From a virus (lineage: Duplodnaviria > Caudoviricetes), in IMG/VR virus record IMGVR_UViG_3300020045_004441, positions 13,056 through 77,055 of that record: a DNA stretch of 64,000 bases, one strand, 5' to 3'. Shown here in pieces: positions 10,599 to 31,646 of the stretch; the stretch's first letter is position 1; the number at the start of each line of letters is the position of its first letter. The notes under the pieces were generated by a model. It searched no databases. It was not told the DNA's origin and saw nothing but the letters and a program-made list of their open reading frames with translations. A program made the translations under genes and the position numbers.

Positions 10599-11183
10599 TT
10601 ACTTCACATCCATTTCCACCAGACATGACTCGTGCTTGTTATTTTCTGAAATCATCGTGCATATTTTTATAAAATAATCATTGTTAAATACATTCTTCAT
10701 TCTGTTGATATCTTTATGAACCCATTGTACATTTCCATCTACATACCCCAATGAAGAGTCTATTCTATCTAGAGAGGCTGTTCCTGATCTATCTTTTGAC
10801 CTGGTTGGAAAATGTAATTCTATTCCAGACAATGCACACTTTTTATTCTGTTTCAAGAATAAATCCCAAATATATTCTTTAGATATAGATAATTCAACTG
10901 GAGCCCGGCTCCCTTTATCTCCATTGGCACTTCTTTCTATGCTGTGTCTCCAAAAGTTTCCAGAAATGTCTCCAATTCCAGTCCATTTGGGATGTGATTT
11001 CCCAACCGGCCTATCACATCCACAAGACTTAGTATTGCCCTGAATTAAATGGGTTCCAAGAACGTCGGTTTTATTTCCACACTCACATAGACATCTATAT
11101 CGTATGTGTCCATTTCTGGTCTTTGAGTTTATCTCTTCTACTATAAGCTTACCAAATTTTAATCCTCTTAAATCTTTTCTCAT
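10599..11183 (-). CDS. HNH homing endonuclease (free-standing)
   Basis: DLRGLKFGKL, CLCECG, SCGC, SLDRIDSSLGYVDGNVQWVHKDINRMK. Likely start MRKDL at 11183. Confidence 0.8.
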   Translation of the reverse strand: MRKDLRGLKFGKLIVEEINSKTRNGHIRYRCLCECGNKTDVLGTHLIQGNTKSCGCDRPVGKSHPKWTGIGDISGNFWRHSIERSANGDKGSRAPVELSISKEYIWDLFLKQNKKCALSGIELHFPTRSKDRSGTASLDRIDSSLGYVDGNVQWVHKDINRMKNVFNNDYFIKICTMISENNKHESCLVEMDVK

Positions 11184-11203
11184 ATACTCACATTTTATTA
11201 ATG

Positions 11204-11234
11204 CAAATATAGTAAAAATATGCGAGAATGCAAA
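11204..11234 (-). promoter_or_regulatory. Bacteroidota sigma-A type promoter for the HNH gene
   Basis: TTTG-N19-TATATTTG on the minus strand, 20 nt before the ATG at 11183. Confidence 0.7.
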
Positions 11235-11235
11235 A

Positions 11236-13113
11236 TCAGATAACCTCACACGAACCGCTTCCTCCACAAGCAACCTCTCCCATTAAAGATGTTTCATCAT
11301 ACCCTTCGATAACTTTAGTTAAATCTACATTTTTAAGATTAACTATTGCTGCATCATACTCTTCTTTAGTGCAAGATTCAAATGGAGCCTGAATATATGA
11401 ATGATTATCATGTGGCAATACAGCAATTCCACTGTATGTTTTACGATTATTCCACATCCATCCAGCAACCTCATCCCATTCATTGTCTCTGATAGATACA
11501 GTACAACTCACATTATGCTGATTATATCCACTTCTAAATCCAGGATTAACCCATTGTTCTGTAACAGCTTTAACTCTAGTAAGTAAATCTATCGCAGATT
11601 CATTTCTAATAATAGAACCTTCTGGAGCTTTTTGTGGGATCTTAATAATTGCAGTTGTTGATGCATTAAAGAAATCATCTTCAAGTAATTCTGGATTATT
11701 ATTAAGTAAATATCCATAAATACTTTCATTTTTATTCACTCGCATTCTTCTCCAATAGTAATTATCGTGCCAAGCATGAATTCCGCTAGAAGTTCCCAAT
11801 ACTAAGCTAGTTGTACCGGCCGGCTTAACGGTCGTTATTCTTGCAGCTCGCCTAATGCCAATTCTATCAGCATATTCAGCGTTTGTATCGACGGCAATAG
11901 AGGCCGCTTCTTCAAGATTATAATTAAACACTTTCATCGAAGCAATTCCAGTCATTGAAACGCCCAGTAAAGCATCTTTCTCGCAATTAGTCTTCCAAGA
12001 ATCTCGCAAATAATGAAAATCTGTATATGAAGCCTGTAATGTTCCAATTATAGATGCGGCCCTAACTCGATCATTCAAATCTTGTTGAGATTCAATATTT
12101 GAAACATTAACTTCAGTCAAATTGCAACATGCTGTGTCTCTGAGACTTATCTCGTGGCACGGGTTGAATCCCATCTCTGGATTATTAGTCCAAGATATTC
12201 CTGGCTCCCCTGCGCCTGAAGCTTTAATATAATTCCATAACTTCAAGAAGTCTTCTTTTTTAACTCTAGATCTAACAACTACTGCACTGTTATTTGCTAA
12301 TCTAAAGTGAGGATTTGTGTCCCACCAATTGCCAGATTTACATGAAAGCATGTCTGTATCATCAATTGTAAACAATGCTATTAGCGATGCTCTTCTTATT
12401 CCACCCGACAATACTGCATCTGCGATGTGACACATAATTGAATGTGCCTCCAGTGTTGATAATTGATCTCCATCATTTTTAGACTCAAGAATTCCTTGAA
12501 TTTTGACCAAGCACTCTCTTAGCGGCCTAGCTCCAGGAGCTTTTCCACCTGATGTAATTAATAATGAGCCCTTAGCTCTAATTTCTCTAAAATCAAAATC
12601 TATAGATGAATTTGATAATCCAAAATACGATTTTATCAAAACCTTAACTGCATCTGCCCACCCCTGAATACTATCAGATATAACATATCTACGGCGTCTG
12701 TTGATATTAGGCTTTCTAATTAATGGAAGCTTGGCTACGTGATGCTTCTGTACAGAATATCCCAGCCCACAGCCGCTTAGCAATAAAAACATTGCTTCCT
12801 GAAATATTCTTATATCGTTAACTGCGGCATAAGAGCAGTTATACAATCTTGCTGGGTTGATTTTGGCTGCCTTACCAGCAAACTGAAGACTCCTCATCGA
12901 CGGAAGAACCTTCTTGTCATACACGTATTGATACGCATCTCGAATGTCTTTTTGTAATGATGGAAACTTCTCAATATGCATTTCCATATTACGAGTAACT
13001 ATTTCACTCCAAGACTCTCGCCTATTCTTTTCGGGTAAAAACCTAGCATATTTATTAAAAATAGTGATTTCACTCAATATCTCTCTGCTCACATCTCTCT
13101 CACTATCGCTCAT
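11236..13113 (-). CDS. nrdJ: Class II (adenosylcobalamin-dependent) ribonucleotide reductase
   Basis: PSMRSLQFAG, LYNCSY, NPCHEISL, CNLTEVN, TTVKPAGTTSL, C-terminal ACGGSGSCEV. No beta-subunit gene nearby. Confidence 0.9.
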   Translation of the reverse strand: MSDSERDVSREILSEITIFNKYARFLPEKNRRESWSEIVTRNMEMHIEKFPSLQKDIRDAYQYVYDKKVLPSMRSLQFAGKAAKINPARLYNCSYAAVNDIRIFQEAMFLLLSGCGLGYSVQKHHVAKLPLIRKPNINRRRRYVISDSIQGWADAVKVLIKSYFGLSNSSIDFDFREIRAKGSLLITSGGKAPGARPLRECLVKIQGILESKNDGDQLSTLEAHSIMCHIADAVLSGGIRRASLIALFTIDDTDMLSCKSGNWWDTNPHFRLANNSAVVVRSRVKKEDFLKLWNYIKASGAGEPGISWTNNPEMGFNPCHEISLRDTACCNLTEVNVSNIESQQDLNDRVRAASIIGTLQASYTDFHYLRDSWKTNCEKDALLGVSMTGIASMKVFNYNLEEAASIAVDTNAEYADRIGIRRAARITTVKPAGTTSLVLGTSSGIHAWHDNYYWRRMRVNKNESIYGYLLNNNPELLEDDFFNASTTAIIKIPQKAPEGSIIRNESAIDLLTRVKAVTEQWVNPGFRSGYNQHNVSCTVSIRDNEWDEVAGWMWNNRKTYSGIAVLPHDNHSYIQAPFESCTKEEYDAAIVNLKNVDLTKVIEGYDETSLMGEVACGGSGSCEVI

Positions 13114-14521: not shown

Positions 14522-15520
14522 TTATAATTCTAATATTTTATTTTCAATAAATTTTCTATCAACCTCAACCTCTGGATTCTGAGAATAAAACATATAATCA
14601 TCTAATAATTCATATACACCTTTTTCTTTCTCGCCAAAGACATTTTCAAAGCCATATAGCCCCTTTTTATGCCATTCTGAGCCCATATTCCAAATGAATG
14701 GGAATTTGTCTGACCTAGAATAAACAATGAATTTAAAGTCCTCTAATGCATATCCAAGCTGAAGTTCATCTCGCATCCAATTTGATAGAGCCTCTTTGTA
14801 AAGGCTACCCTGTAGGTAATATCCCATTTTAACAAAATGATGTTTAAACGCTGGCATATGCATCTCAGTAGCCTTAAGATCGTATGGAGTTACTGTTTTG
14901 TTTAAATTATCAATAATTACTAAATCGAGCATAGTCTTCACTTGAACGCCATTAATTTCAGCTATAATCATCACTTGAGTCAAAACTTCAATATCTTTAC
15001 TAGGATTAAATATCCACGAAGTATTTGGATGTGATTTAATGATCATTTCAGCATCACAACATTCAGCTAGTGTATCTGGAGTGAATATGGTTTTTCCAGC
15101 AGAGTCAACTCTTGCTTGAATATAATTCCAGAATAAATCTGTATCAAACTTAGCTATACGCTTGTCGTAATCTTTAACTCCACCGAATAGTCCTAATGCT
15201 TGAGATACAGCCTCAACGCTCACATTATTTTTAATATAATTATTGAGTTCTTCAGGTTCGTTTTTAATTAGGTAATCTGCCAGCTCTAATAACTGTGCTG
15301 TTGGCTTCTCTGCTGCATCAAAATAGAACTTATTATCGAACTCATGTGCTGTAATTAATTTACAATCTAGTAAGCTACCAAAATCTATTGCTTCAGAGTC
15401 ATACTTTTTAGAGTACTTTAAGGCTCTTGGGCCACTCTCATCTATCCTTTTGAGCAATGAATAAGAGGGCATTGGTAGCCCCCTATATTCACTCTCAGAT
15501 ATATTAAGTCTTTCTGTCAT
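14522..15520 (-). CDS. PD-(D/E)XK exonuclease (RecE/ExoVIII-like)
   Basis: SYSLLK, FGSLLDC, KTMLDLVIID...YDLKAT, YYLQGSLY. Confidence 0.75.
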   Translation of the reverse strand: MTERLNISESEYRGLPMPSYSLLKRIDESGPRALKYSKKYDSEAIDFGSLLDCKLITAHEFDNKFYFDAAEKPTAQLLELADYLIKNEPEELNNYIKNNVSVEAVSQALGLFGGVKDYDKRIAKFDTDLFWNYIQARVDSAGKTIFTPDTLAECCDAEMIIKSHPNTSWIFNPSKDIEVLTQVMIIAEINGVQVKTMLDLVIIDNLNKTVTPYDLKATEMHMPAFKHHFVKMGYYLQGSLYKEALSNWMRDELQLGYALEDFKFIVYSRSDKFPFIWNMGSEWHKKGLYGFENVFGEKEKGVYELLDDYMFYSQNPEVEVDRKFIENKILEL

Positions 15521-15892: not shown

Positions 15893-16126
15893 CTATGAAT
15901 TAAGTTCATAATACTCCATTGTTTTATTATACAGATTATCAGCAATTTCTTCAGCCTTTGAATTATCCATCTCAGCAAAGTAATCAACGAGTTCATCGCT
16001 GATTATCCTTGCCGTATCAAGATTATTAGAATTGATGTTCTTCTTATATATATTAATGACATCTTTATTGTTTTTAGACATTAAGACCATTAACATATCT
16101 GCAATTCTAAATAGTTCGTCTTTCAT
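15893..16126 (-). CDS. Hypothetical protein
   Basis: 77-aa ORF coupled to the amidoligase stop codon. Confidence 0.55.
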   Translation of the reverse strand: MKDELFRIADMLMVLMSKNNKDVINIYKKNINSNNLDTARIISDELVDYFAEMDNSKAEEIADNLYNKTMEYYELNS

Positions 16127-17562
16127 CCTAAAACACTATAAGGTGGCACAATTAAATCCTCAAGAAGTTCTTTATCTCCCTGAGCATCCATATTAACCAT
16201 ATAATCCTTCCGCCATTGCACATATCCACTTAAAATTGTTGCCAATTCTGGTAAATATACGTCGCTGAATATAGAATTTAAGTTAACAGTTCTCAAATCA
16301 CTAAAATTAGCAATCTCATCTTTATGTTTTTCAACATAAGCCATTACAGCATTACAGATAAATAGCCAATTAAGCATTTTGTGAGGGTTCTGAGTGATTG
16401 TATGAAGTCTGAATTCATGCGTGCCCGATCCACCCCAAATCATTGGTATACAGTTAGTTATGAAATATCTCTGAGAAATATTCCATTTCTGTCTGTTCTC
16501 TCTATCTAGAGGATGATTCTTTACACCAAATCCTTCAAAATGACCATTACCTCCAGAATAAAAATTATATAATGCTTCAAAATTCTGATCAACAGTATTA
16601 TTTTTCAATAATCTAATGTTCTTAATTGGAGCACAATAATCTTTCTCTTTGAATTTATTTTCAGATGTGAACTGATAATTACTTGGAAACATACTATAAA
16701 GCTCATCCTGAATTCTCAGCATAACTCTATGCATTGCTACAACAAACGCTTTAGATGGAGCATATCCGCCAATATGTAAATGAAGAGAACATTTCTTACC
16801 TATAGTGGTATATTTCTGAATTAAATCAGCAATATCAACCATAGTATGAACACCTTTCTCTCCACTTAATGGGATTGTTGTGAATTCAAATGGCTCAATA
16901 CCATCGTGTCTTAAACTGCCATCTCTAAGTGGAATTAATCCATTCTTAAAGCATTTCTGTTCAGGTATATAACCATCAGCAGTCTCCACTTCAAAGCCAA
17001 ACGTCTTGTCATTCAGCTCTTTAGCGAATTTGGCTAGTTTTGGAAGATACTTACTTGGCGTATAAGCCTTATCATAAGCTTCTTTGAATTGCTTAATCTT
17101 AGGCCCAGCACTGTAAGATAAATCAAATGAATATCTAGCGCCAATGCCTTTCTTATTAAGTCGCTCGTTAGATAGCTTGCCTTTAGGATAGAATGTTCCG
17201 GTGGAAATCTCTTCAACGAATCCAAGTTTATTTGGAATCTCATCAGAAATACATATTACATCATTCATCCTAACGTTCTTTAGTGGATTTGGAGAGAAAT
17301 AACCATTAATGGCAACTCCCTTATCGTCAACTCCAACAATGCCCTCATATAGCTCAGTGTTTTCTAATAGAACCCACCTCTGAGCCTCATGGTCAAATGC
17401 GATTAATCCATTGTTAATTCTGTGCCATTTATTATCTGGCATCAAAAAACAATCTACATTAATCTCATAATATTCATTTTTAATATAACGACATTTATTT
17501 CTTGGAACTAATTTACCATTAACAGTTGTTACTGTAAAATCTTTTGTATTAGAAATTGTCAT
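16123..17562 (-). CDS. Putative amidoligase (COOH-NH2 ligase, Amidoligase_2-like)
   Basis: FGFEVET, RDGSL...EFTTIPL, CSLHLHIG, DYC, RY...N, THEFRLHTITQN..K..NW. Confidence 0.8.
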   Translation of the reverse strand: MTISNTKDFTVTTVNGKLVPRNKCRYIKNEYYEINVDCFLMPDNKWHRINNGLIAFDHEAQRWVLLENTELYEGIVGVDDKGVAINGYFSPNPLKNVRMNDVICISDEIPNKLGFVEEISTGTFYPKGKLSNERLNKKGIGARYSFDLSYSAGPKIKQFKEAYDKAYTPSKYLPKLAKFAKELNDKTFGFEVETADGYIPEQKCFKNGLIPLRDGSLRHDGIEPFEFTTIPLSGEKGVHTMVDIADLIQKYTTIGKKCSLHLHIGGYAPSKAFVVAMHRVMLRIQDELYSMFPSNYQFTSENKFKEKDYCAPIKNIRLLKNNTVDQNFEALYNFYSGGNGHFEGFGVKNHPLDRENRQKWNISQRYFITNCIPMIWGGSGTHEFRLHTITQNPHKMLNWLFICNAVMAYVEKHKDEIANFSDLRTVNLNSIFSDVYLPELATILSGYVQWRKDYMVNMDAQGDKELLEDLIVPPYSVLG

Positions 17563-19465
17563 ATCCTGTAACTAGGGTGAATTTTTTAAATTTATTTTCT
17601 TCGAGTAAAATATCTTCCAACTTGGATAGATTATTAATAGACATAGCTGCATCTTGTGTTGAAATACCAGACACTTCAATGTCATTACGACAAGCATCAA
17701 TTGCCATCAGAATAGCACTTAACCCATCATTTAAAGCTGTTTTAAGCAAGGAAGCATCGGAACTTATTGCGTCATCAATATAACCCAATCCTCTGCATAG
17801 CGAGCAAACGTTCATATTTGCATCATCGCCAGTACCATTGCAGTCTGGACATAATATACAATTTTCAGGCAAATCATCATCGCTTGGCCCAGCCTCAGAT
17901 GCAACTTCAATTTCTTCCTTGAGTTTATTATGCTTATCTAAGATGGCATCCATCTCATCTTCACATTGTTTACATGTGCATGTTGTTGGATGTTGAATTA
18001 AATCACCAGCTTTTTCTGTATAAACTACTGGTAATGTAATAATCTTAGTCTCAGTCTTTTCGTGAACTGGCTTATTTATGACAGCAAGAAACTCAACACT
18101 TATTAAACTACCACCAGCAAATCTATACTTCTTTGTACTAAATAATGGTGTTACATTTCCAGTAAATAATGGAGCCTTGCATTGCATTGCTGCTGGATTT
18201 TTAAGCCATACTCTAGCGTTATCATATGTTGGTAGCTCATGATCTAATGTACATACTGGATATTCAGCATATTCACATATTTTCATTACGTTCATTTCAG
18301 TGTCATTGAAATGCCTAGCTTTACCAAGATTACGTCTACACTTATCAAATGCATCTTTATCTTTAAGCATTATTCCACGATAGAAATAATATGGCTTTTC
18401 ATCAGAAGCACATGCATATTCGCCTTTAACGCCACTCTCATCAAGATTAATAATACCATTAGCATAAGTTGGAGTTACGCCATCAAACATAAAGTAATAC
18501 CTCAATCTTGCGCAAATAATCTTTTTAGGATTAAAGTTTTTACAGATCATGTCTTTCTTGATGCTTAATTTAAATGTCTCTTTAACTTGTGGATACGCTG
18601 ATTCGTAATAAGCTGCAATTGCCTCTGCATTACCATAGCCATCATCCCAATCGTCAGTTCTACCATAACCATAATGCTTAGTACTAGAATTATTGGCAGT
18701 ATTTACATATGTTGTTGTTGGCCATATTTTATTCTGAGAACAATCTTTTCTATCGAACACTTGCTCGCTAATTATCTGACCACCAAAAATTGTATATAAT
18801 TTATTTGGCTCAAAATCCACCACGTTATCAGCATCACCACCAATAAAATATAATCCATCACACTTTGATGAAATATACATTGAGGTTTCTGACTCTTGAT
18901 AATAACACAATGGACGCTCTTCTTCAACTTTGACTCCATATGTTTTAGATAAACCTTTAAATACCTTTAAAGTATCAGGCTCTCTATCGTCCTTAATAAT
19001 TATTGCAGCTGCACCATTGTATTCAAGCAATACTCCAAAACCATAATTCATAATAATTTCAGCAAATACCATTGAGTCAGATTTTCCTTTCTTATCAATA
19101 TTGTATTTCTTAGCAAGCTCTTCCCAATTATGGAGAGTGCCATTATGAATCATTATGAATCTACCTGAACCATCTGGTAAATCAAGTACTACCGGCTGAG
19201 CTGTAGCTTCTGATATCTCACCAACACTAGCTTTTCTAGTGTGACCCAAGGCGATGTGCGATGGGTCACTATTCTTCGTGTTGATAACATAATCTTGATA
19301 TGTTGTTTTAGCTTTCTTTGATACAAATTTATCAATCGTCTCTCCAACAATTCTACCAATGGAATCACCTCCACGCTCATCGTTGTCTAATCCAAGATGA
19401 TTAAATTTATCCCAATTGAAGTTGTGATTATTTCTTAAACTGTTGTAGGCCCAAAGTCCACACAT
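17549..19465 (-). CDS. Class II (Ntn) glutamine amidotransferase with a long C-terminal extension
   Basis: N-terminal MCG nucleophile, ERGGDSIG, LGHTRKASVG, AQPV, HNGTLHNW, SDS. C-terminal CPDCNGTG/CSLCRGLG. Confidence 0.85.
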   Translation of the reverse strand: MCGLWAYNSLRNNHNFNWDKFNHLGLDNDERGGDSIGRIVGETIDKFVSKKAKTTYQDYVINTKNSDPSHIALGHTRKASVGEISEATAQPVVLDLPDGSGRFIMIHNGTLHNWEELAKKYNIDKKGKSDSMVFAEIIMNYGFGVLLEYNGAAAIIIKDDREPDTLKVFKGLSKTYGVKVEEERPLCYYQESETSMYISSKCDGLYFIGGDADNVVDFEPNKLYTIFGGQIISEQVFDRKDCSQNKIWPTTTYVNTANNSSTKHYGYGRTDDWDDGYGNAEAIAAYYESAYPQVKETFKLSIKKDMICKNFNPKKIICARLRYYFMFDGVTPTYANGIINLDESGVKGEYACASDEKPYYFYRGIMLKDKDAFDKCRRNLGKARHFNDTEMNVMKICEYAEYPVCTLDHELPTYDNARVWLKNPAAMQCKAPLFTGNVTPLFSTKKYRFAGGSLISVEFLAVINKPVHEKTETKIITLPVVYTEKAGDLIQHPTTCTCKQCEDEMDAILDKHNKLKEEIEVASEAGPSDDDLPENCILCPDCNGTGDDANMNVCSLCRGLGYIDDAISSDASLLKTALNDGLSAILMAIDACRNDIEVSGISTQDAAMSINNLSKLEDILLEENKFKKFTLVTGYDNF

Positions 19466-19493
19466 AAGTTGTTGATTATTAGTTAATTACTAT

Positions 19494-19856
19494 TTATTTT
19501 ATTAATTTAAGTGCAGCTAACAGTCCAGCTTCTAATGCAAGCTCGTAAGATTCAAATTTACCCCAATTAGTTGACTCTTCGTGATATGGCAGTGAATAAT
19601 GATATATTTTGGTTTGACCATTAAACATTCCAGATCTTATTGTTATATTAATTTTATGAACTTCTCGGAGCCAACGTTGTAATAGACTTTGAGTTGGAGC
19701 TGAAATAAAATCTATACAATTTTGAGAGTTCCAATCATACATTAATGAAGTTCTATCGGTCAGTATTTCTTGACGATACATTTGATAGACCTTCCAGTCA
19801 AAATCTTTATCCTTGGCTAGTCTCGCAGTTTGCAGTGACACTAATTGCTCTTGCAT
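19494..19856 (-). CDS. Hypothetical phage protein
   Basis: VSLQTARLAK...SAPTQSLLQRWLRE pattern, common in Bacteroidota phages. Confidence 0.6.
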   Translation of the reverse strand: MQEQLVSLQTARLAKDKDFDWKVYQMYRQEILTDRTSLMYDWNSQNCIDFISAPTQSLLQRWLREVHKINITIRSGMFNGQTKIYHYSLPYHEESTNWGKFESYELALEAGLLAALKLIK

Positions 19857-20673
19857 CTTCTTTAATTAATTGTTCATTTAAATCAATACCAAGCACCATA
19901 TATTGGTTCATAGTAAATTCAGCATTTTCAGTTACTGGAGCTTTAACATAATCCAATAGTCTAAGATTTTCATAATTAGCACAATATTGCACAGCTTTGA
20001 TAGTTTGTTCGTAAGTCCAAGCCAAATGTTCTTCAGCGGTAAAATGTCCACCTAAAGCGCGACACTCAATTCCATAGGCTGGACAATCACGATATACGCC
20101 ATAATTACCATAATATTTAGCCCTAAATTCATCATTGTGATGTTGTCTAGCTGGATACACTACGAAGTAATCAAATGCCTTAGCAATATAACGATTCATC
20201 TGACGCTTATCCAAAACCCCTGCAACCATATGATAACCAACATGATGGTGATGACCAGCTACTCGAACTGGCATAAAACTCATATTCTCAGCAGAAAAAC
20301 TACCTAACTCCCAAGCGTTTTTATACGCTGAGCAGCCAAACACATTTGCCTCTGGATGCTCTAAAAATCTAGGTTTGAATCGCATTGAATCAGCTGAATG
20401 AAGTTGTAATCCTGCAATAGCAAGAACACTATTCATCATTGATTTAAGGGTCTTCATAGACGCTACAAACTCATCAACATTCTTGGCTGGTGGAATGTTC
20501 CCCTCAACTAAAACATTGTCTTTAAGGAGCGCAAAACCACCTCCTTGGTCTTCTGGAGACTCTTTGGTTCCGTTAAATATTCCAATTGATGGAAATGCAT
20601 CACCTTTTTTATCTACAATGAAAAATTCTGGATCTGATCCAATTGTTATATTATCTAAATCAATTAAATTCAT
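19807..20673 (-). CDS. phiEco32-like COOH-NH2 ligase type 2
   Basis: IGSDPEFF, KDNVLVEGNIPP, FGCS, AGHHHHVGY, R..YYG..G.YR, YGIECRALGG. Confidence 0.85.
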   Translation of the reverse strand: MNLIDLDNITIGSDPEFFIVDKKGDAFPSIGIFNGTKESPEDQGGGFALLKDNVLVEGNIPPAKNVDEFVASMKTLKSMMNSVLAIAGLQLHSADSMRFKPRFLEHPEANVFGCSAYKNAWELGSFSAENMSFMPVRVAGHHHHVGYHMVAGVLDKRQMNRYIAKAFDYFVVYPARQHHNDEFRAKYYGNYGVYRDCPAYGIECRALGGHFTAEEHLAWTYEQTIKAVQYCANYENLRLLDYVKAPVTENAEFTMNQYMVLGIDLNEQLIKEDARAISVTANCETSQG

Positions 20674-20960
20674 TATTGTTGTTTTTGTTTGTTGTAATAT
20701 TTTATGAATTCAACTACTGTTCTCCAAAGAGAATTAATATTAACCTCAATCAATGCATCATTAAGTTTAAATTGATGATTAGATAAATTATTTTCAATTA
20801 AATCATATTTTTCAAAACATCTCTCAACTACTGGCATTAACCAATCCCAAGATTTATTATATTTTAATGATTGTAAACACAATAAATCTTTATTACCTTT
20901 TGATACTTTCATGAAGTTATCAATCAATTTATTTCCTTTAATTATCTCCGTTGAATTCAT
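20673..20960 (-). CDS. Hypothetical phage protein
   Basis: KYNKSWDWLMPVVE motif. Confidence 0.6.
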   Translation of the reverse strand: MNSTEIIKGNKLIDNFMKVSKGNKDLLCLQSLKYNKSWDWLMPVVERCFEKYDLIENNLSNHQFKLNDALIEVNINSLWRTVVEFIKYYNKQKQQ

Positions 20961-20968
20961 GATTTAAT

Positions 20969-22054
20969 TTATACTACTTTAAAATGTGTTTTTAATAAAT
21001 GTCTTTTACAATAATCATCATTCTTAACTATATAAAGATTATCATACATCGAGAATTCAGCTTGATATTTATTACCTTTAGTTAGCGTTTTAAGCCTATC
21101 TGTAATACATTCTACTTCAAATGGCTTTCCAGACACCTCTTTAAATACATCAATTGCTGCCTTAAAATTTGAGACATTCATTAAAGTGAAATTACTTTTC
21201 TTTGCATTTGAGAATGATAGATTAATACTCTCGCCTTTTGGTAATCTAGTTTTAACATCTTCCATACTAACATATCCTGTTTGGTATAATAATCCATAAT
21301 ATCCAGAATAATTGGTTTTAGATAAAGCATAGTATAATGCATCCCAGGGGTCAATTGTAGTGTCTGATTTAATAATTCTCAACGTATCTGCAACTAATCC
21401 ATCAAAATGACAGCTCCATAAAAATCTGTAGAATGTTAAGATTGCTAATTTATGATTAGTACTCAATGCTTTAGAGCAATCAATGGTTACTATATATGCA
21501 TTAAATTCAGGAATTGGCATAACCATTTTGGCATCTTCTTGCTCTTTGAGAATTCTTTCAACATAAAGATCTAAGCATTCTCCAGTTTCATAAACCTGAT
21601 GATCAGAGGCATATCCATTCCAATTTGAGAACATTTTATTCCCATTAAATTTATCAGTTCTATATACAGAGCAATGTGTTTGCAATCTACTAAAATTGCC
21701 ATCTATTGAATTTATTACTCCAAATACATTTTTATTTGCATCATTCTGTCTGTACCTATAATTCTTTTTACAGGTAATTCTCAATCCTTTGAATTGTTCT
21801 AATCTTGGATCGTATGACGAATTATTGCTACTTAAATCAATATTTACTTTCTCTAATGCAGCTGGAAATAATGTTTCATTACCAATTTTATTCCACAATG
21901 TAACATCATCATCTGAAATCCCTGTATTCAACCATGTGAATGGAATGTAAATATCAATTGGAATAGTTTTATTACGAATATCCATCATACATTGTGTTTG
22001 CTGAATGCCGTAACCTTGATGATAATCGTATTTAGTGTTATTATGATCTGCCAT
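20969..22054 (-). CDS. Unknown 361-aa protein within the amidoligase cluster
   Basis: ORF coupled to the ATP-grasp gene; no recognised motif. Confidence 0.6.
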   Translation of the reverse strand: MADHNNTKYDYHQGYGIQQTQCMMDIRNKTIPIDIYIPFTWLNTGISDDDVTLWNKIGNETLFPAALEKVNIDLSSNNSSYDPRLEQFKGLRITCKKNYRYRQNDANKNVFGVINSIDGNFSRLQTHCSVYRTDKFNGNKMFSNWNGYASDHQVYETGECLDLYVERILKEQEDAKMVMPIPEFNAYIVTIDCSKALSTNHKLAILTFYRFLWSCHFDGLVADTLRIIKSDTTIDPWDALYYALSKTNYSGYYGLLYQTGYVSMEDVKTRLPKGESINLSFSNAKKSNFTLMNVSNFKAAIDVFKEVSGKPFEVECITDRLKTLTKGNKYQAEFSMYDNLYIVKNDDYCKRHLLKTHFKVV

Positions 22055-22868
22055 AATTTGCTATTTTGTCATTAATAATCTTGGGTAATTCCTCTCTATA
22101 TTTAACTTCAGTTACACTTCCGAGCGATGCGGCGCTGTTAATTTCAAGAATTATAAATTCTGGTACAAAATCTTCACGGCGTCCTTTCTCGGACTGCACC
22201 TTAACGTCACAAGCACCCAAGTCTAACCCAACTGCATTTAATGCCTTTACGCACTCAGATACAATATCATCCCAATTCTTAGGCTTTTCAAATAGAGGAT
22301 TTTCTTCCATCATCCAAACTGAATTAGAATCATGACGATGCCAACGATCTTCAGCATCTTGTTTTAACATTTTACGACAAGTATAGAAACAACCATCTTT
22401 AGTTACATGCAAGCGATACTCTTTAGTCATGCTTGAAGCGAAAACTTCCACGATATAATTAGAATGATCTCTATGTTCGGATATAAAATTATCCAAATCA
22501 GACTGAGATAATATTAGATAAATTCCTTCACCTTTGCATGAGTTTTTATGCTTAATGATTGCTGGGAATGTTGTCCAATCAGCACCATCAACATCAGTTA
22601 TATCTTCAAGTTTGCTCCATTGTGCTGTTTTAACTCCAATCTCATCAAACTTTTGCTTCATAATAATTTTATTACCACTGTTATGACAAGCTTCAACTGT
22701 ATTTACTTCAATAACTGGTCGTCCCTGTGGCATCCTAGGAAATGCCTCTGTAACAGTAGTTCTACTACCTAGACGTATAATACAACGCATAGCAAACTCC
22801 CCTAGAGAATTTCTAAGAGGAGCTGCTGTATGATTCTTGGTTCTAATTTGTGGCTTCCAGGTCTTCAT
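22041..22868 (-). CDS. RimK-like ATP-grasp peptide/amide ligase
   Basis: IRLGS, NSGNKIIMKQ, IIKHKNSCKGEGI, KEYRLHV, LDLGACDV, ILEINSAASLG. Confidence 0.85.
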   Translation of the reverse strand: MKTWKPQIRTKNHTAAPLRNSLGEFAMRCIIRLGSRTTVTEAFPRMPQGRPVIEVNTVEACHNSGNKIIMKQKFDEIGVKTAQWSKLEDITDVDGADWTTFPAIIKHKNSCKGEGIYLILSQSDLDNFISEHRDHSNYIVEVFASSMTKEYRLHVTKDGCFYTCRKMLKQDAEDRWHRHDSNSVWMMEENPLFEKPKNWDDIVSECVKALNAVGLDLGACDVKVQSEKGRREDFVPEFIILEINSAASLGSVTEVKYREELPKIINDKIANYGRS

Positions 22869-23085
22869 CTCTAAATATTAAATTAGCACAATAAATTACA
22901 AAAATTACAAATAGTATGACTGCAAATTCAATCAAATAAACAATCCCCATATTTACCATAAACGAGTGGTGATTATCCGTTAAGAATCCCACTATACCAG
23001 TAAAAACTGGCAATATAGACAAAAGAAGAGCAGACCCTACTATTTGTCTAGTCTTGATATGCATATCTTCTTTTGTAAAATTCAT
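22843..23085 (-). CDS. Small two-TM membrane protein
   Basis: Two hydrophobic segments; fills the gap between the GGCT and ATP-grasp genes and overlaps both slightly. Confidence 0.5.
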   Translation of the reverse strand: MNFTKEDMHIKTRQIVGSALLLSILPVFTGIVGFLTDNHHSFMVNMGIVYLIEFAVILFVIFVIYCANLIFRDEDLEATN

Positions 23086-23437
23086 TCCAATCACCACTCT
23101 CTACCGAATCGTACCCAGATTGATATCTAGGACTTTCTAAAACATAAACTTCAACTTCTCCGAGAGATGTTGGCACTAATGCTTTTTGGTAAAAACTTGG
23201 CCAGCCCTCCAGGCACTCAACGCTACGATATGTATAATCATTAACTTCCCATATTTCTACGGTAATGTCATGATTTTCTGGTGATGGTATTAATCCGGGG
23301 AAGCCGCCCAGCGACACCATGCGATATGGAATATTAATTACCTCTGTTGATTTAAGCTCGCTATCTCGTAGTAACCTATTGTTGCCGTGACCTTTACGCA
23401 AAGACCCGTATGTTACGATTAATCTTTTATTGCTCAT
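23048..23437 (-). CDS. Gamma-glutamylcyclotransferase (GGACT/AIG2-like)
   Basis: VTYGSLRKGHGNN, FPGL, VEIWEV, LEGWPSFY. Confidence 0.85.
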   Translation of the reverse strand: MSNKRLIVTYGSLRKGHGNNRLLRDSELKSTEVINIPYRMVSLGGFPGLIPSPENHDITVEIWEVNDYTYRSVECLEGWPSFYQKALVPTSLGEVEVYVLESPRYQSGYDSVESGDWNEFYKRRYAYQD

Positions 23438-23876
23438 TTGTTTTGTTTTTATAAATTTCTAACAATGAATTCCATGAATATCCATCAATAAGACTTGTCT
23501 TTCCGGTATCATTCCATCTATTATTTTGGCTATTTTCAATGGTATATTCCCAATATGTTGGATGTACTTCACTACTGTAAAATACAAGCTTATGTTTATT
23601 TTGACAAAATAAACATCTAACTACATGATCGTTGTCAAGAAGCTTAATTAAATCTATCAACATTACAATTAAGTCGTCTTCTTTTGTTTCAGTCTTAAAT
23701 GCACCATCTAGTAACATTTTAAGGTCGCCAATGGATCTAGATTTTCTGGGTCTACATTGCATGTCTGTGCATTCAGGATCGTTGAATGTTGCTGGAGTAC
23801 ATTTAACAAAATAATCTAATAGAAAATTCTTTTTAGATTGTCTATTTAATTGTTGGGCACAATATATTTTATTCAT
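23427..23876 (-). CDS. Hypothetical protein, paralog of 31646-32074
   Basis: AT....QC...K.RS..DL..L...F pattern. Confidence 0.55.
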   Translation of the reverse strand: MNKIYCAQQLNRQSKKNFLLDYFVKCTPATFNDPECTDMQCRPRKSRSIGDLKMLLDGAFKTETKEDDLIVMLIDLIKLLDNDHVVRCLFCQNKHKLVFYSSEVHPTYWEYTIENSQNNRWNDTGKTSLIDGYSWNSLLEIYKNKTNEQ

Positions 23877-24588
23877 CTTGTAATACTGATTTTTTAGTTC
23901 GCATAATTCTATTAACCATATTTTCCATCAAAACAATTGTGTCATAATCAACGCAATCTTCAATGTGACTTTGTATTCCTATGATTGGCAGTGTGTTGTG
24001 AGCAATTAACTCAATTGTATTATCTTTCTCATGTGTTGCTAGTACCGATAACCCCTCACCTAAAAATCTAGGATCAATTGCTTGATGATGCCTACTGTTA
24101 ACACCATAAACTCTCTGAGGCTGCCTATTTTGCATTACTGGTGCAAATTCTGAGAAATTCCAGAAGTCAATAGCATTAATTTTAATGTTGTGCATTGTCT
24201 TATATGGATCTTCAGGTTTATTGGTCTCATGAGACATATGCTGAATTAACTTACTTCCAAAGTGAACTGCTATTGATTGTAATCCGCGGCAGATACATAG
24301 GATTGGAGTTTCAGTCTCTACATATGCTGGCAATATATTTAAGTCAAAATATTCTTTATGAATATCTGGCTTGCCTGTAAAATATGATGGAACTTCGTTA
24401 TAGCGGTCTACTGAGACGTCGGCGCCTCCAGTTAATAATAGCAAATCTAAATCTGGTTTAAACGAGCTATCTGGAAGCAATAATATTGGTTCTCCAAATT
24501 GTGATGCATATTCTAAGTAACTTAGAGTTAATCCAACTGAATTTTCTCCAAGCTTACTGATTGGAATTCCTATTTTTTTTCGTGTCAT
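23869..24588 (-). CDS. Peptidase C26 / gamma-glutamyl hydrolase (class I GATase fold)
   Basis: LLLTGGADV, ICRGLQ (catalytic Cys), VNSRHHQAI, GIQSHIE (His-x-Glu). Confidence 0.85.
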   Translation of the reverse strand: MTRKKIGIPISKLGENSVGLTLSYLEYASQFGEPILLLPDSSFKPDLDLLLLTGGADVSVDRYNEVPSYFTGKPDIHKEYFDLNILPAYVETETPILCICRGLQSIAVHFGSKLIQHMSHETNKPEDPYKTMHNIKINAIDFWNFSEFAPVMQNRQPQRVYGVNSRHHQAIDPRFLGEGLSVLATHEKDNTIELIAHNTLPIIGIQSHIEDCVDYDTIVLMENMVNRIMRTKKSVLQDE

Positions 24589-25753: not shown

Positions 25754-26353
25754 TTAGTTGGAATACCTCCATACGAATCCTCCAGATGTTTTATATCTTT
25801 TTGAGCAGCAATTAGAGATGTTTCCATTGCGAATTCCGGTAACCCTTTCGGCATCTTTTAAAGAATAAAATTCTCTAATGAGATTTCCATCCAAATCATA
25901 TTGTTTTATTGATTTACTCATTTTATTGTTTATTCCATTCTTTGCATCAGAATGAGCTTTATGGATGTTTTCTATAGTTGATAATATTTGAATATTATCC
26001 AAAGAGTATGTTTTATAATCATTAAGTCTATCAACAGACGGAGTGAATTTGAATCCATAATTAGACTCTTCCCATATTTTAAATTGAACGTGATATTTAT
26101 CTTGAGATAAACACCAGCTCCGCAATTCATCTAGCGAATATTCTGGATATTCATAATTTCTTTTTCTACAATTATCTCTCTGATGTGAATAGATTCTAGT
26201 TACGAGTCCTTCTTTAGTTCTATTATATTGAGTTGTTTTTTCATTTGCGCACTTTCTGCATATATAAGACACATACCCACGACTATCTATATAAAAATCA
26301 ATCAACTCTTTATCTTCCTTGCAACAATTACATTTCTTTGTTTTAATTTCCAT
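25754..26353 (-). CDS. HNH-type homing endonuclease with a NUMOD1 DNA-binding domain
   Basis: CNCC..CRKC, SVDRLNDYKTYSLDNIQ, QYDLDGNLIREFYSLKDAER...NISNCC...GGFVW. Confidence 0.7.
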   Translation of the reverse strand: MEIKTKKCNCCKEDKELIDFYIDSRGYVSYICRKCANEKTTQYNRTKEGLVTRIYSHQRDNCRKRNYEYPEYSLDELRSWCLSQDKYHVQFKIWEESNYGFKFTPSVDRLNDYKTYSLDNIQILSTIENIHKAHSDAKNGINNKMSKSIKQYDLDGNLIREFYSLKDAERVTGIRNGNISNCCSKRYKTSGGFVWRYSN

Positions 26354-27395
26354 TTTCTAGTTTATATTTTAACAATCCATTAAATTCTCTCAATCCATAT
26401 TTAGCCACTAATTCCGCAGGATCTTTAGCCCTATAAATATATGGATTGTAAAGATACTCAATGTTATACATACTAGAAAATTTTTTAGCATTTATTATTC
26501 CACTATTGTAATCTTTTTCATAATCATTGTCAAACCAAATTACAATTCGATTCCATCTTGGCCTTAATTTTTTATAGAAAATTTCTGGCAAAATGAACGA
26601 TCCCTCATTGTTCGGGGCGATCGCATTGCAATAATGTCCATTAAGTCTCCAGAAAATTCCCGCATCTTTCTTACTACTTGTAATATATAGCGTATCTCCA
26701 CCGCCTTTGGGTAATAAATCCCAATTCTGAATAACAGTATTATCTACATTAGAAATCCATTTGTGCTTACCATCGCGTTCTGGGAAATATAGTTTTCTCC
26801 TATAAATACCATTATGCCTATAATAATCATAACTATAAGCCAATTCATGTGGCACTGCATATGGCATCTTAATCATACCCTTGTGCTCCATTGTTAGCCA
26901 GAAGTAGTCTATTGGCCTAATAGAAGCCATCTGAAGCATTTCTTCAGTCCAGCCATATTGTTGCCAGTATTCTAAGTCGTAATCCTTATATGGAGCGTAT
27001 GACACATTTATGACAGTTGTAGATTTCTCCTTAAAATGCGGTGTTGGATTAATCTTAGATATAATAGTTCTTACATATCTGAAATCTCTATCAGAATTAT
27101 CTATTAATTGTAATCCAAAATCTAGATTAATCTTTCTAATAGCATCCCTAAAATCTAAATTAAACTTACGCATCACATATTCAATAGCCCTGTAAGATCC
27201 CTCTCCAAAATCTGTGTACAAAAGGTCTCCGCCAATATGTTCTATCATACACGATGGAGACTTTTCATCTCTAAACTCTGATTTAAAAGGCTGTGATATT
27301 TTCTTAAAATTCCTACAGTAAGCTTGAAATATTTGATATGTTGAAATCACATCTAATAAATTGCTCTTAGTAAGAATATTTCTAGTTGTGATCAT
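26343..27395 (-). CDS. dnaG: DNA primase (Toprim)
   Basis: SEFRDEKSPSC, YTDFG, ITSSKKD, WFDND (DxD), KDPAEL. Confidence 0.8.
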   Translation of the reverse strand: MITTRNILTKSNLLDVISTYQIFQAYCRNFKKISQPFKSEFRDEKSPSCMIEHIGGDLLYTDFGEGSYRAIEYVMRKFNLDFRDAIRKINLDFGLQLIDNSDRDFRYVRTIISKINPTPHFKEKSTTVINVSYAPYKDYDLEYWQQYGWTEEMLQMASIRPIDYFWLTMEHKGMIKMPYAVPHELAYSYDYYRHNGIYRRKLYFPERDGKHKWISNVDNTVIQNWDLLPKGGGDTLYITSSKKDAGIFWRLNGHYCNAIAPNNEGSFILPEIFYKKLRPRWNRIVIWFDNDYEKDYNSGIINAKKFSSMYNIEYLYNPYIYRAKDPAELVAKYGLREFNGLLKYKLENGN

Positions 27396-28568: not shown

Positions 28569-29282
28569 TTAATTATAGTATTCATGCACACATTTAGAAA
28601 CATACCCTAAATCATTTGGTATTCTAATTGACGGGAATGTACCCTGTGGCGATTTGGCTGGATAATCATTGGTTCTGTTTGTTACGAAGAAATAATTACC
28701 CTTTTGAGTTTTATCGTCCCATTCTGAAACTGCATATAACACAATATTAAACAATCCCTCAAGAGTTATCTTAGAGTCCAACATATTGCCAAGTGTTTTC
28801 ATTTTGCGGACAACCTCAAAATCTTTATGGATCTCTTCGCTGTGACAAATGAAATACACCTGTAAATCATCTCTTAGATTGCGAGCCATATCAATGATCT
28901 CAAAATAATCCTTACCAAGCTCATTGAATTTTTCATAACCCTTCTCCATTGCCTTACGCATGAACGCGAACGCTAAACTATAATGGGCGTCGTCGATCAC
29001 AATATATTTGATGTGAGGCATAGTTGTATTGATCCGGCTAAGTGCATTTTTTATATTTGCAGCTTTATCGCTAGAAAACCAATTCCCATCAGGACTTTCT
29101 GTTGGGTGAAATGGTTTATAGTGCTGTTTCCATCCTTTTGTTGGTAATCCCTTGCCAGCTACTGAGATTATAAATGTTTCCTTTGGTGGCAATCCAATAA
29201 TTCCAAGTTCTGGATTTCCCAATATTGCAGTTGATTTACCAACTCCACTCTCTCCCGTTATTCCTATTAATTCTCCTGCCAT
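28569..29282 (-). CDS. AAA_24/Sak4-like P-loop ATPase (recombination)
   Basis: Walker A GESGVGKST, Walker B IVIDD, ICHSEE, EGLFNIVLYA. Confidence 0.75.
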   Translation of the reverse strand: MAGELIGITGESGVGKSTAILGNPELGIIGLPPKETFIISVAGKGLPTKGWKQHYKPFHPTESPDGNWFSSDKAANIKNALSRINTTMPHIKYIVIDDAHYSLAFAFMRKAMEKGYEKFNELGKDYFEIIDMARNLRDDLQVYFICHSEEIHKDFEVVRKMKTLGNMLDSKITLEGLFNIVLYAVSEWDDKTQKGNYFFVTNRTNDYPAKSPQGTFPSIRIPNDLGYVSKCVHEYYN

Positions 29283-29291
29283 ATATTATTA

Positions 29292-30122
29292 TTATTTTAT
29301 TATTTCTTTGTGTTTCCAATAAAATCCGTATTTTAATATTTCTTTATCCATCCAGCTACGAATTCCTTCTTTTATTATGCCATTTTCTCTCTCAGCTTCA
29401 CCTCTAGATCTATATGTATTTATTAGGTTGTAATCCTTATCATACTGATACACTTTTTTACCTAGTCGTTTAATATTAAATTCAGATATTTTTCTTTTGT
29501 GCTCTAAGGTTAATGGAGTTCCGTTAGCCCACCATTTGTCATATATATAGGATTTATTTGCGTCATAATCCTTTTGATAACAAAATGTAAAATCTTGAAG
29601 AAAATTTTTCTTGTGACCCAAGCAGCATTGTGACACATTTGTACTAGAAGACTTTATAAATCTAGCGGCATCTGATACTGAATCAAATTCATATTGTAAT
29701 TCTCCCGTAAACCTATTGAAGACAAAAACTGGCTTAGAAGTTCGTTTCTTATTGTCCTCAATAGACTTTCTGCTTTTGTTCCAAGCTGTAATGTGTGTGG
29801 AATTATTAAGCATTTGATTGTATCCATTATTAATTACATCTAGTGAAATTATGTATTTTTCTTCTAGTTTTAGTAATTCATTTCTGTCTATTGAATCAAA
29901 TTGTTCTAATATTTCTACCTCAAAAGCAGTTGTCCCATATTTATCGAATGATTTTTGCAAATGAACATTACAATGAACATTATTTATTAGCTCATAATAA
30001 TGCCTCTGAAGTCTTAACTTTAAATTTACTGCTGATCCAATGTAGGATAAGTTTGTTTGATTGTTTGTAATTTTGTAGATCCCAAATGTTTTTGGGAATT
30101 CTTTAAAATCTAATGTATTCAT
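29292..30122 (-). CDS. GIY-YIG homing endonuclease with NUMOD1 repeats
   Basis: GIYKITN...SYIGSAVNLKLRLQRH, GYN, two NUMOD1-like repeats. Likely ATG at 30122, since the track TTG start overlaps the promoter. Confidence 0.85.
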   Translation of the reverse strand: MNTLDFKEFPKTFGIYKITNNQTNLSYIGSAVNLKLRLQRHYYELINNVHCNVHLQKSFDKYGTTAFEVEILEQFDSIDRNELLKLEEKYIISLDVINNGYNQMLNNSTHITAWNKSRKSIEDNKKRTSKPVFVFNRFTGELQYEFDSVSDAARFIKSSSTNVSQCCLGHKKNFLQDFTFCYQKDYDANKSYIYDKWWANGTPLTLEHKRKISEFNIKRLGKKVYQYDKDYNLINTYRSRGEAERENGIIKEGIRSWMDKEILKYGFYWKHKEIIK

Positions 30123-30146
30123 AACGGCTATCTGTTTATTAGATAG

Positions 30147-30177
30147 CAAAGATATACATTATTATTTAATTTACAAA
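30147..30177 (-). promoter_or_regulatory. Bacteroidota sigma-A type promoter for the GIY-YIG gene
   Basis: TTTG-N19-TATCTTTG. Confidence 0.7.
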
Positions 30178-30509: not shown

Positions 30510-31646
30510 TTATATGGTATTTTTGTTGTAATTCGCTATCTGCTCATAAACTCTTTCTGATGGTTCCCTAGGTAATTCTGCAAAGTAATTACATGCACCT
30601 AGGAACATAAGATCTATGGATGCGCTAGATATTCCATTACGATTAAGGTTAATTAGCAATTCTCTATGATTCATACCAATTCTAGCTAAATCCCAGCCAT
30701 TATATGATGGAATCTTATAATTATAGGGCCAAAACAGACTAATCATTAAATTTGCATCATTCTTGGTTGATTTATTATCAGCTAATCCTTCTGGGTTGGG
30801 TTTCAATCGTTCAATCATTACATCTCCACGATTAGTATATTGCGCATCCGTGGAATTCGCAGTTTGTTGCTGGATGAGTACTGGTGAATATCCCCATCTA
30901 TCTCTAAGTTTAAGAAATATTTTGGATGATAATTCCCCAATTGCTTCATATAGAGAGCTTTGATCCTTCTGTGGAGAAATCAAACCACAGTGATCAACAA
31001 GAACGACTACATATTCATCGGGTTTATTTGGAATATATCTATCAACAACCTTTTTAACAGTTGAGCTGCCATCATCTTCCTGCCAAGCAACATCCTTATA
31101 TTCATAATGACCATTAGCTTCAGCATAGGATTTCATTGTAAGTAATATGCCAGTAGTATTTCTAATATCATCATGAATTGTCACAATTGATTGAAATTCC
31201 ATTAACCATTGTTGAAATTCTCTAGAATCAATAATCTTCAACAATCTATCATCAAGAGTATACCCAGCAAATACAGATTGTAAATTATCTGGACTAATTA
31301 TAATCCCATACGATTTAAATAACTTATAACTAATTGCAGATATGATCAACAAGTCTGCACTAATTTCAAGACTAAAGTAGAATATCTTAAGAGTTATGTT
31401 TGTTGAATCTCTATTTGTAAGATACCAGTCAATTGGTTCAAACATATATAAGTAATTGGCTAACTGAGACTTACCTCCTTTACTTTGGGCCGAAATTATT
31501 GTAAATTGCTTTTGTCTAACTCCTGGAAGTATTGATGAAAGTCTTGGTAGACTCCATGGTATCGCTATTAGGTCTCCATTTAATTTACGCTCTCTGTTTT
31601 GTTTAAGCTGATCAACAACTCTTTTAATCCTATCTTTCTCTTCCAT
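30510..31646 (-). CDS. dnaB: DnaB-like SF4 replicative helicase
   Basis: AQSKGGKSQL (Walker A variant), FSLEIS, VLVDH, IQQQ, DNKST..DA, RNG. Confidence 0.8.
   Translation of the reverse strand: MEEKDRIKRVVDQLKQNRERKLNGDLIAIPWSLPRLSSILPGVRQKQFTIISAQSKGGKSQLANYLYMFEPIDWYLTNRDSTNITLKIFYFSLEISADLLIISAISYKLFKSYGIIISPDNLQSVFAGYTLDDRLLKIIDSREFQQWLMEFQSIVTIHDDIRNTTGILLTMKSYAEANGHYEYKDVAWQEDDGSSTVKKVVDRYIPNKPDEYVVVLVDHCGLISPQKDQSSLYEAIGELSSKIFLKLRDRWGYSPVLIQQQTANSTDAQYTNRGDVMIERLKPNPEGLADNKSTKNDANLMISLFWPYNYKIPSYNGWDLARIGMNHRELLINLNRNGISSASIDLMFLGACNYFAELPREPSERVYEQIANYNKNTI

Follow-up and report, generated by a model that had tools for sequence, protein, structure and literature searches.

A probable crAss-like copy of the widespread phiEco32/LUZ24-type amidoligase cassette in the replication arm of a Crassvirales phage

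A 64,000-nucleotide (nt) stretch of virus DNA, positions 13,056 to 77,055 of IMG/VR record IMGVR_UViG_3300020045_004441 and hereafter called the window, carries on its minus strand, at 16123-24588, a tight co-directional block of six ligase, amidotransferase-fold and gamma-glutamyl-cleaving enzymes with interspersed open reading frames (ORFs). Most adjacent genes of the block overlap or are separated by less than 30 nt, and a scan for consensus terminators gave no excess of sites over shuffled sequence. The block is very probably a crAss-like copy of the widespread phiEco32/LUZ24-type amidoligase cassette, situated in the replication arm of the phage and probably at work in the cytoplasm of a Bacteroidota-type host. 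An earlier sequence-only reading of this DNA had listed eight items here, and all eight are present at the coordinates it gave, on the minus strand; its list omitted three ORFs inside the block (149, 95 and 120 amino acids, aa). In order of transcription the genes are as follows.

23869-24588, minus strand: Peptidase_C26, a gamma-glutamyl hydrolase of the class I glutamine amidotransferase (GATase) fold, 239 aa (PF07722 1.5e-26)
23427-23876, minus strand: Cys-rich ORF between the C26 and GGACT genes, 149 aa, no family match
23048-23437, minus strand: GGACT / AIG2-like gamma-glutamyl(amine) cyclotransferase, 129 aa (PF06094 2.1e-14)
22843-23097, minus strand: small ORF with two hydrophobic, putatively transmembrane (TM) segments (2-TM ORF); probable ATG start at 23064, 73 aa
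22041-22868, minus strand: ATP-grasp amide ligase, 275 aa (phrog_2599 3.4e-29)
20969-22054, minus strand: 361-aa slot protein with a C-terminal SH3/KOW-like barrel
20673-20960, minus strand: 95-aa ORF, lineage-specific, no significant family match
19807-20673, minus strand: phiEco32-type COOH-NH2 ligase, a GCS2/GS-like carboxylate-amine ligase, 288 aa (phrog_3815 3.9e-41)
19494-19856, minus strand: 120-aa protein (phrog_12005 1.1e-26)
17549-19465, minus strand: class II (Ntn) glutamine amidotransferase, 638 aa, Met-Cys start (PF13522 8.1e-14)
16123-17562, minus strand: Amidoligase_2 (GS-like), 479 aa, with an N-terminal extension of about 185 aa (PF12224 2.7e-06)

Homologues of the 361-aa protein and of the amidoligase pointed to diverged crAss-like contigs. 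The six enzymes were found in the same order in three of these, L006 (98 kb), L007 (88 kb) and L008 (104 kb), and again, with the C26 gene duplicated, on two further contigs of 46 and 72 kb that were compared from their gene tables only. Two closer relatives, L004 and L005, are represented by sequence that ends before the amidoligase. In the diverged contigs the cassette lies between primase/Sak4 and exonuclease/ribonucleotide reductase (RNR), with amidoligase identity down to 33%. Because gene order and genomic position of the six enzymes are retained from contig to contig, the sequence comparison confirms that the arrangement is not due to chance, and the co-conservation on which the sequence-only reading had hinged is indeed found. 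Conservation of the catalytic residues was judged over 9-11 diverged loci comprising crAss-like, LUZ24-like, Kuravirus, Alcaligenes-phage and cyanophage copies, among them Cellulophaga phage phi14:2 (L009) and crAssphage cr108_1 (L010). The residues are conserved throughout, a few being missing from one sequence of a set, in agreement with the earlier description of the motifs as intact. As judged from these alignments, the cassette is an intact and co-conserved set of three predicted ATP-dependent carboxylate-amine ligase folds, one Ntn amidotransferase-fold enzyme and two gamma-glutamyl-cleaving folds.

The COOH-NH2 ligase was linked by tblastn to gp16 of phage LUZ24 (1e-21; 6e-17 against the whole phage database) and to QDWS535 (4.9e-34). 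It has 25 invariant residues, including E16, E57, H142, H144, E203 and R205, which are common to LUZ24, Bas87 and QDWS535, and it matches 298 phage records, whose ten commonest host genera are all Gram-negative. Solved structures searched by sequence with this ligase and with the amidoligase gave no match. The ATP-grasp gene is present in 11/11 loci with invariant K67, E150, R152, K166, D221, E242 and N244. Its Pfam match is weak (CPSase_L_D2, 0.0037), and its NCBIfam scores of 29.5 bits for Ddl, 26.9 for pseudomurein peptide ligase, 26.5 for PurK and 26.2 for RimK (TIGR00768, cutoff 143.4) are all far below the curated cutoffs and show no preference for RimK over other ATP-grasp families. The label "RimK-like" in the sequence-only reading is therefore not specifically supported, Ddl, PurK and RimK all scoring 26-30 bits, and the protein is better described as a putative generic ATP-grasp ligase.

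These matches bear on the possibility that the cassette modifies peptidoglycan precursors, placing unusual stem linkages or amidation (on gamma-D-Glu or meso-diaminopimelate, mDAP) on UDP-MurNAc-peptides in the cytoplasm and thereby keeping later phages from crossing or binding the wall. We hold this to be possible but doubtful. The best NCBIfam matches of the ATP-grasp enzyme, weak as they are, are D-Ala-D-Ala ligase and pseudomurein peptide ligase, and class I/II amidotransferases such as MurT/GatD and AsnB1/LtsA are known to amidate bacterial stem peptides. The commonest hosts of ligase-matching phages are Gram-negative, and the host range is widened to Bacteroidota and cyanobacteria by the crAss-like and cyanophage copies. 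However, the Ddl score is equal to those of PurK and RimK and as far below its cutoff, the cassette contains no Mur-ligase-like, transpeptidase or exported component, its only membrane ORF (2-TM) is not conserved, and it is embedded in a replication/nucleotide module. A wall alteration that prevents superinfection is the role that, according to PMC5498523, PMC6256558 and PMC10580990, Iyer 2009 and Hardies 2013 proposed, as a prediction only.

The class II GATase matches PF13522 with 52.2 bits (cutoff 27), R77, N108, G109 and D130 being invariant and the nucleophile C2 being kept in all but one sequence. Its GATase domain extends from residue 1 to about 245, and residues 5-246 of the structural model match PurF 8w7d (Z 12.3, root mean square deviation 3.5, 179 aligned) as well as GlmS 4amv (Z 11.6) and EgtC 4zfj (Z 11.3). 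Since the predicted fold matches EgtC nearly as well as PurF and GlmS, the domain may either donate ammonia or be the third enzyme of the cassette to cleave gamma-glutamyl groups, and the ammonia-donor role that the sequence-only reading had assigned to it is not required. The C-terminal region of about 390 aa is made up of a beta-rich domain, CxxC zinc ribbons and a helical hairpin; Pfam finds in it a weak DnaJ-type zinc finger only, and the zinc ribbons are missing in several orthologues.

The ends of the GATase deserve description in their own right. Most orthologues carry a hydrophobic N-terminal leader of about 30 residues before the catalytic Cys, implying propeptide removal, and the window GATase and P0182 start directly with Met-Cys, without a leader (alignment A2, columns 1-31). 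At the other end, 13 close orthologues (the set P0171-P0183 without the fragment P0176; window site 17549-17570) terminate in Tyr-Asp/Glu-x-Phe, seen as YDNF, YEQF, YDKF or YERF. This acidic-aromatic tail recalls those of SSB and T7 gp2.5, and its conservation may be due to the overlap with the start of the amidoligase.

The amidoligase matches PF12224 with 27.9 bits (cutoff 22) and phrog_2443 at 4.9e-36, and E191, E193, H261, H263, E383 and R385 are invariant. Its homologues fall into 105 metagenomic protein clusters, many of them on contigs of 85-104 kb. The GATase stop overlaps the amidoligase start by 14 nt in the window, an overlap also found in L006 and L008, and the two genes are neighbours in each of the 9 loci whose sequence extends to them. 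The adjacency in every locus, together with the overlap in these three, suggests that GATase and amidoligase work as a pair.

Of the two gamma-glutamyl-cleaving enzymes, the C26 hydrolase is well above the Pfam cutoff (PF07722, 94 bits against 20.5) and matches phrog_7218 at 2.4e-20. Its best NCBIfam match is gamma-glutamyl-CDP-amidate hydrolase (8.9e-15, below the family cutoff), and PuuD is also among the matches. In the Cys-His-Glu triad E210 is invariant, and C100 and H208 are kept in 10/11 sequences. The enzyme was found in L003, L004, L006, L007, L008, cr108_1 and L011, and was not found in LUZ24, Bas87 or phi14:2. The GGACT enzyme, which matches phrog_2520 (7.6e-21) besides PF06094, is present in 10/11 compared loci, the missing locus being cr108_1; Y10 and E61 are invariant, and G11, L13 and E77 are kept in all but one sequence. 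Iterative search with jackhmmer linked the ATP-grasp and GGACT enzymes to LUZ24 gp21 and gp22.

The remaining genes of the block behave differently from the enzymes, the 361-aa protein in the slot upstream of the COOH-NH2 ligase being the most prominent. It has no Pfam, PHROG or NCBIfam match; that it is a genuine protein is borne out by 30 homologues of 42-100% identity with 54 invariant columns and by a confident structural model. The family is tiny, with 43 clusters among 1.84 billion representatives. In its AlphaFold2 (AF2) model, with a predicted local distance difference test score (pLDDT) of 88, residues ~310-361 form an SH3/KOW-like barrel (Z ~7 in PDB Foldseek, VIA-align wide and BFVD), the sole part with a known-fold match. 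Identity to the L006 protein is 46%, against 56-75% for the enzymes, which points to faster divergence. The same slot in L007, L008, cr108_1, LUZ24 and Bas87 holds proteins of ~300-400 aa without detectable similarity to the 361-aa protein: the family hidden Markov model does not find the L007 or L008 slot proteins, hhalign of the family against LUZ24 gp14, gp15 and Bas87_0083 gave no similarity, and the L008 slot protein is a second C26-like enzyme. From these features the 361-aa protein could possibly be a lineage-specific adaptor, specificity factor, target-binding partner or substrate.

Two further observations concern the slot. In cr108_1 (L010:4147-6048) it is filled by two paralogous proteins of 329 and 300 aa (26% identical, E 4e-10), and the 361-aa model has weak whole-length matches in BFVD to two proteins of the crAss-like virus ctelJ1. 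Going by the models, the slot proteins may be structurally related despite their diverged sequences.

The slot protein is pertinent to the proposal that the cassette reversibly modifies proteins, in which the ligases would attach glutamate or a short peptide to a protein of the host or the phage, the hydrolases would erase it, and the 361-aa protein would serve as substrate or targeting subunit. ATP-grasp and GCS2-like families do include RimK and PafA/Dop, and a fast-evolving protein with an SH3/KOW-like barrel near the ligase is what would be expected of a host-interaction component. Against this, the cassettes have neither a small tag ORF nor a substrate protein in common, unrelated proteins take the place of the slot protein in L007, L008, LUZ24 and Bas87, the ATP-grasp enzyme is not specifically RimK-like, and GGACT enzymes act on free gamma-glutamyl amines and not on proteins. 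We consider protein modification unlikely on balance. Reversible writing and erasing on a protein, which the sequence-only reading had named among its possible targets, stands as only one option among several. A more speculative version, for which we see even less probability, is a machine that writes, edits and erases marks on proteins or metabolites and is aimed at host targets by the slot protein; it would serve anti-defence or superinfection exclusion, with the slot as a specificity module under arms-race selection.

The small ORFs vary from lineage to lineage. The 2-TM ORF, counted as a cluster member in the sequence-only reading, was rejected as a component of the system: it has no tblastn match in any locus, and even in the closest relatives (L004, L005 and L006) its slot holds unrelated soluble ORFs, with a homing-endonuclease-like ORF in addition between GGACT and ATP-grasp in L005. 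For the 149-aa ORF there is no Pfam, PHROG or NCBIfam match and a homologue in L004 only (44% identity); its CxxC-type spacing suggests that it may bind zinc. For the 95-aa ORF the only relative is encoded by L006 away from its cassette, as an ORF of 134 aa. Homologues of the 120-aa ORF occur in L005 and L006; in L007, L008, phi14:2 and cr108_1 the GATase gene comes directly after the ligase gene. The 120-aa ORF was also tried as a homologue of LUZ24 gp17 and rejected, as no similarity was found. None of the small ORFs (68, 77, 88, 95, 120 and 149 aa, and the 2-TM ORF) is conserved beyond the nearest clade. On this comparison, the six enzymes are the core of the cassette, and the 2-TM, 149-, 95- and 120-aa ORFs are lineage-specific filler.

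The contig to which the window belongs is 77,055 bp long. Terminal repeats are missing from it, and its relatives are longer, at about 100 kb, so that the genome is probably incomplete. Matches of the terminase TerL and the portal protein to crAss-type families (phrog_6681 1.1e-112 and phrog_6547 2.7e-134) confirm by sequence that the phage belongs to Crassvirales, as the sequence-only reading had it; among the best TerL matches listed are IAS virus, cr111_1, PhiCrAssBcn phages and crAss001, with identities of 42-45% and a value of about 43% for crAss001. Megablast of the cassette region against phage records gave no match. The cassette sits in the replication arm, whose module order resembles that of phi14:2 and cr108_1, with the following neighbours.

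30510-31646: DnaB-like helicase, upstream of the cassette
28569-29282: Sak4, upstream
26343-27395: primase, upstream
14522-15520: DUF3799/RecE-type exonuclease, downstream of the cassette
11236-13113: RNR, downstream

The replication arm is also interspersed with three genes for homing-type endonucleases (GIY-YIG/HNH and endonuclease VII-like), at 29292-30149, 25754-26353 and 10599-11273, and a single ORF of 3463 aa lies upstream of the window on the contig (G000:C1:51-10442).

The constant position of the cassette among replication and nucleotide genes (primase, exonuclease, RNR, ThyX, dUTPase) could be read as a sign of nucleotide or DNA modification, in which an amino-acid-type adduct on a nucleotide or on phage DNA would evade restriction. 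The fold families are also those of purine and pyrimidine amidotransferases and ligases, and a gene of the uracil-DNA glycosylase (UDG) fold, often with altered motifs, directly follows the amidoligase in phi14:2 (L009:10524-11234), L007 (11485-12159) and L008 (11839-12540). The GQDPY and/or HPSPLS motifs are altered in these three copies. The corresponding gene of cr108_1 (L010:10443-11081), likewise directly after the amidoligase, and a second L008 copy keep both motifs. The 77-kb contig of the window phage has no UDG-fold gene, however. Nor was a hydroxymethylase, kinase, glycosylase-transferase or other base-activating enzyme, or a set of the thymidine-hypermodification type, seen in the replication arm, and no DNA hypermodification pathway is known to use these ligase families. 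Taken together, DNA modification is scarcely probable.

A further alternative is metabolic reprogramming, in which host glutamate, glutamine or gamma-glutamyl compounds would be recycled to feed nucleotide synthesis. Two or three of the enzymes would release glutamate, 5-oxoproline or ammonia, and Duhaime 2017 (PMC5498523) mentions "host material recycling genes" for this region. Three ATP-consuming ligases and a fast-evolving partner are, however, unexpected for simple catabolism, and the cassette looks confined to phage-like DNA. The latter follows from a limited scan of 185,579 species genomes with a 5-sequence ligase alignment, which returned four contigs of 36-104 kb from metagenome-assembled genomes, one being the L008 contig and the other three holding several cassette genes. 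Such recycling appears very unlikely.

The reading that we favour places the cassette in a small-molecule pathway, in which gamma-glutamyl would be a transient protecting or activating group, and by analogy with known pathways we regard this as an evenly balanced proposition. What is known of the GGACT, C26 and Ntn-amidotransferase families comes mostly from gamma-glutamyl chemistry on small molecules. It is for this reason, and because ligase-plus-remover pairs of the same folds are established in the butirosin, ergothioneine and Puu pathways and the cassette has no conserved tag or substrate protein, that the small-molecule route is preferred. It is also favoured by the EgtC-like fold of the GATase domain and by the best NCBIfam match of the C26 enzyme, a hydrolase of a gamma-glutamyl amide of small-molecule type. 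The enzymes probably act in the cytoplasm, since TM segments are predicted in 0/6 of them and ATP-dependent ligases need the cytoplasm.

A possible course of the reaction can be outlined, for which we infer the substrates and the order of steps. The COOH-NH2 ligase, of the GCS2/GS fold, and the ATP-grasp enzyme would each form an amide bond by way of an acyl phosphate, and one or both of these bonds would probably be gamma-glutamyl. The amidoligase, which would here be translationally coupled to the GATase, would either amidate a carboxylate with glutamine-derived ammonia or partner an EgtC-like gamma-glutamyl hydrolase. GGACT and C26 would then strip off the gamma-glutamyl groups, releasing 5-oxoproline or glutamate. 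As substrate we envisage an amine or carboxylate of the host, for which a peptidoglycan precursor in the cytoplasm is one candidate, and the fast-evolving 361-aa slot protein would act as a lineage-specific adaptor or target-binding partner.

Several points weigh against this assignment. Every step beyond "amide ligase" and "gamma-glutamyl hydrolase" would draw on analogy with families that have many substrates, and protein modification is known both for RimK-type ATP-grasp enzymes and for GCS2-like ligases (PafA). The PF14395 model does not match the COOH-NH2 ligase of the window, whereas the L007 and L008 orthologues do carry it. The AF2 model of the GATase is poor overall (pLDDT 64), and for its C-terminal ~390 aa fold searches give generic helical hairpins only and the ESM Atlas nothing. 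The N-terminal ~185-190 aa of the amidoligase have no Pfam match, and the Atlas returns relatives only.

Overall, neither the cluster nor its crAss-like context is new, and the window opens no new question, the product of the cassette being an old puzzle. The cassette is among the most widespread phage multi-enzyme gene sets for which no product was found in the literature, and the identity of that product would explain a conserved infection step in Pseudomonas, Escherichia, marine and gut phages. What the window adds is comparative detail, namely the separation of core from filler genes and a slot protein that evolves faster than the enzymes. The cultured crAss-like phage phi14:2 has a minimal five-gene version that is suitable for genetics.

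As the sequence-only reading had noted, the cassette was first described computationally by Iyer et al. 2009, and thereafter by Hardies 2013, both as cited in PMC5498523. That same paper (Duhaime 2017) speaks of a "seven-gene peptidoglycan modification cassette" of RIO-1, phiEco32, 7-11, PA11, tf, LUZ24, PaP3 and CW02. The searchable literature yielded no experiment that identifies the cassette product, which agrees with the earlier statement that no product is established; it also yielded no paper linking crAss with amidoligase in a phage context, and none combining phage, amidoligase and glutamylation.

The folds in question are met in "protect and release" schemes, where a ligase attaches a gamma-glutamyl group and a second enzyme removes it: BtrJ (ATP-grasp) and BtrG (GGACT-like) in butirosin, EgtA (GCS-type ligase) and EgtC (class II GATase-fold hydrolase) in ergothioneine, and PuuA (GS-like) and PuuD (C26) in the Puu pathway. 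The window shares with these the pairing of a ligase fold and a gamma-glutamyl-removing fold in one cluster, but by sequence its enzymes fall in none of the butirosin, ergothioneine or Puu enzyme families, their scores being far below the curated cutoffs. With pupylation (PafA/Dop, GCS2-like) and RimK glutamylation of S6 it shares the ligase superfamilies, but the cassettes have no conserved Pup-like small tag gene.

Among the closest known counterparts is the phiEco32/LUZ24 type, which has the same five families (COOH-NH2 ligase, Amidoligase_2, class II GATase, ATP-grasp and GGCT). LUZ24 gp16-gp22, Bas87 and QDWS535 carry these enzyme families beside a primase-helicase. Also shared are the adjacency of the ligase followed by amidoligase/GATase, the position beside the primase in the early/replication arm, and one or two proteins of 300-400 aa just upstream of the COOH-NH2 ligase. 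The order differs, being GGACT, ATP-grasp, slot protein, ligase, GATase and amidoligase in the window and slot, ligase, gp17, amidoligase, GATase, ATP-grasp and GGCT in LUZ24, and it likewise differs in Kuravirus and further phages. In comparison with the LUZ24 type, the window has an added C26, an amidoligase with an N-terminal extension of ~185 aa, and slot proteins and small ORFs without detectable homology, and the enzyme identities are only 21-36%.

Copies are uncommon in deposited crAss-like genomes: the long amidoligase is matched by 4 records (two genomes), TerL by 151. A crAss-type cassette is also carried by the cyanophage Leptolyngbya phage Lbo-JY46 (L011). In the latter the cassette adjoins genes annotated as PncB (nicotinate phosphoribosyltransferase) and PrsA (phosphoribosyl pyrophosphate synthetase), that is, of the NAD-salvage type (L011:1-3300). 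Annotated copies lie directly after the primase in phi14:2 (g037-g041) and cr108_1 (gp028-gp034), both of the Asinivirinae (Crassvirales, Steigviridae). They differ from the window in that phi14:2 is without C26 and slot protein, cr108_1 is without GGACT and has two paralogous slot proteins and a class I GATase, and in both the amidoligase is followed by the UDG-fold gene that the window phage lacks. Nevertheless, both share the window order of GGCT (phi14:2 only), ATP-grasp, COOH-NH2 ligase, GATase II and long amidoligase, and over 94-96% of its length the window amidoligase is 35% identical to phi14:2 g041 and 30% identical to the cr108_1 protein.

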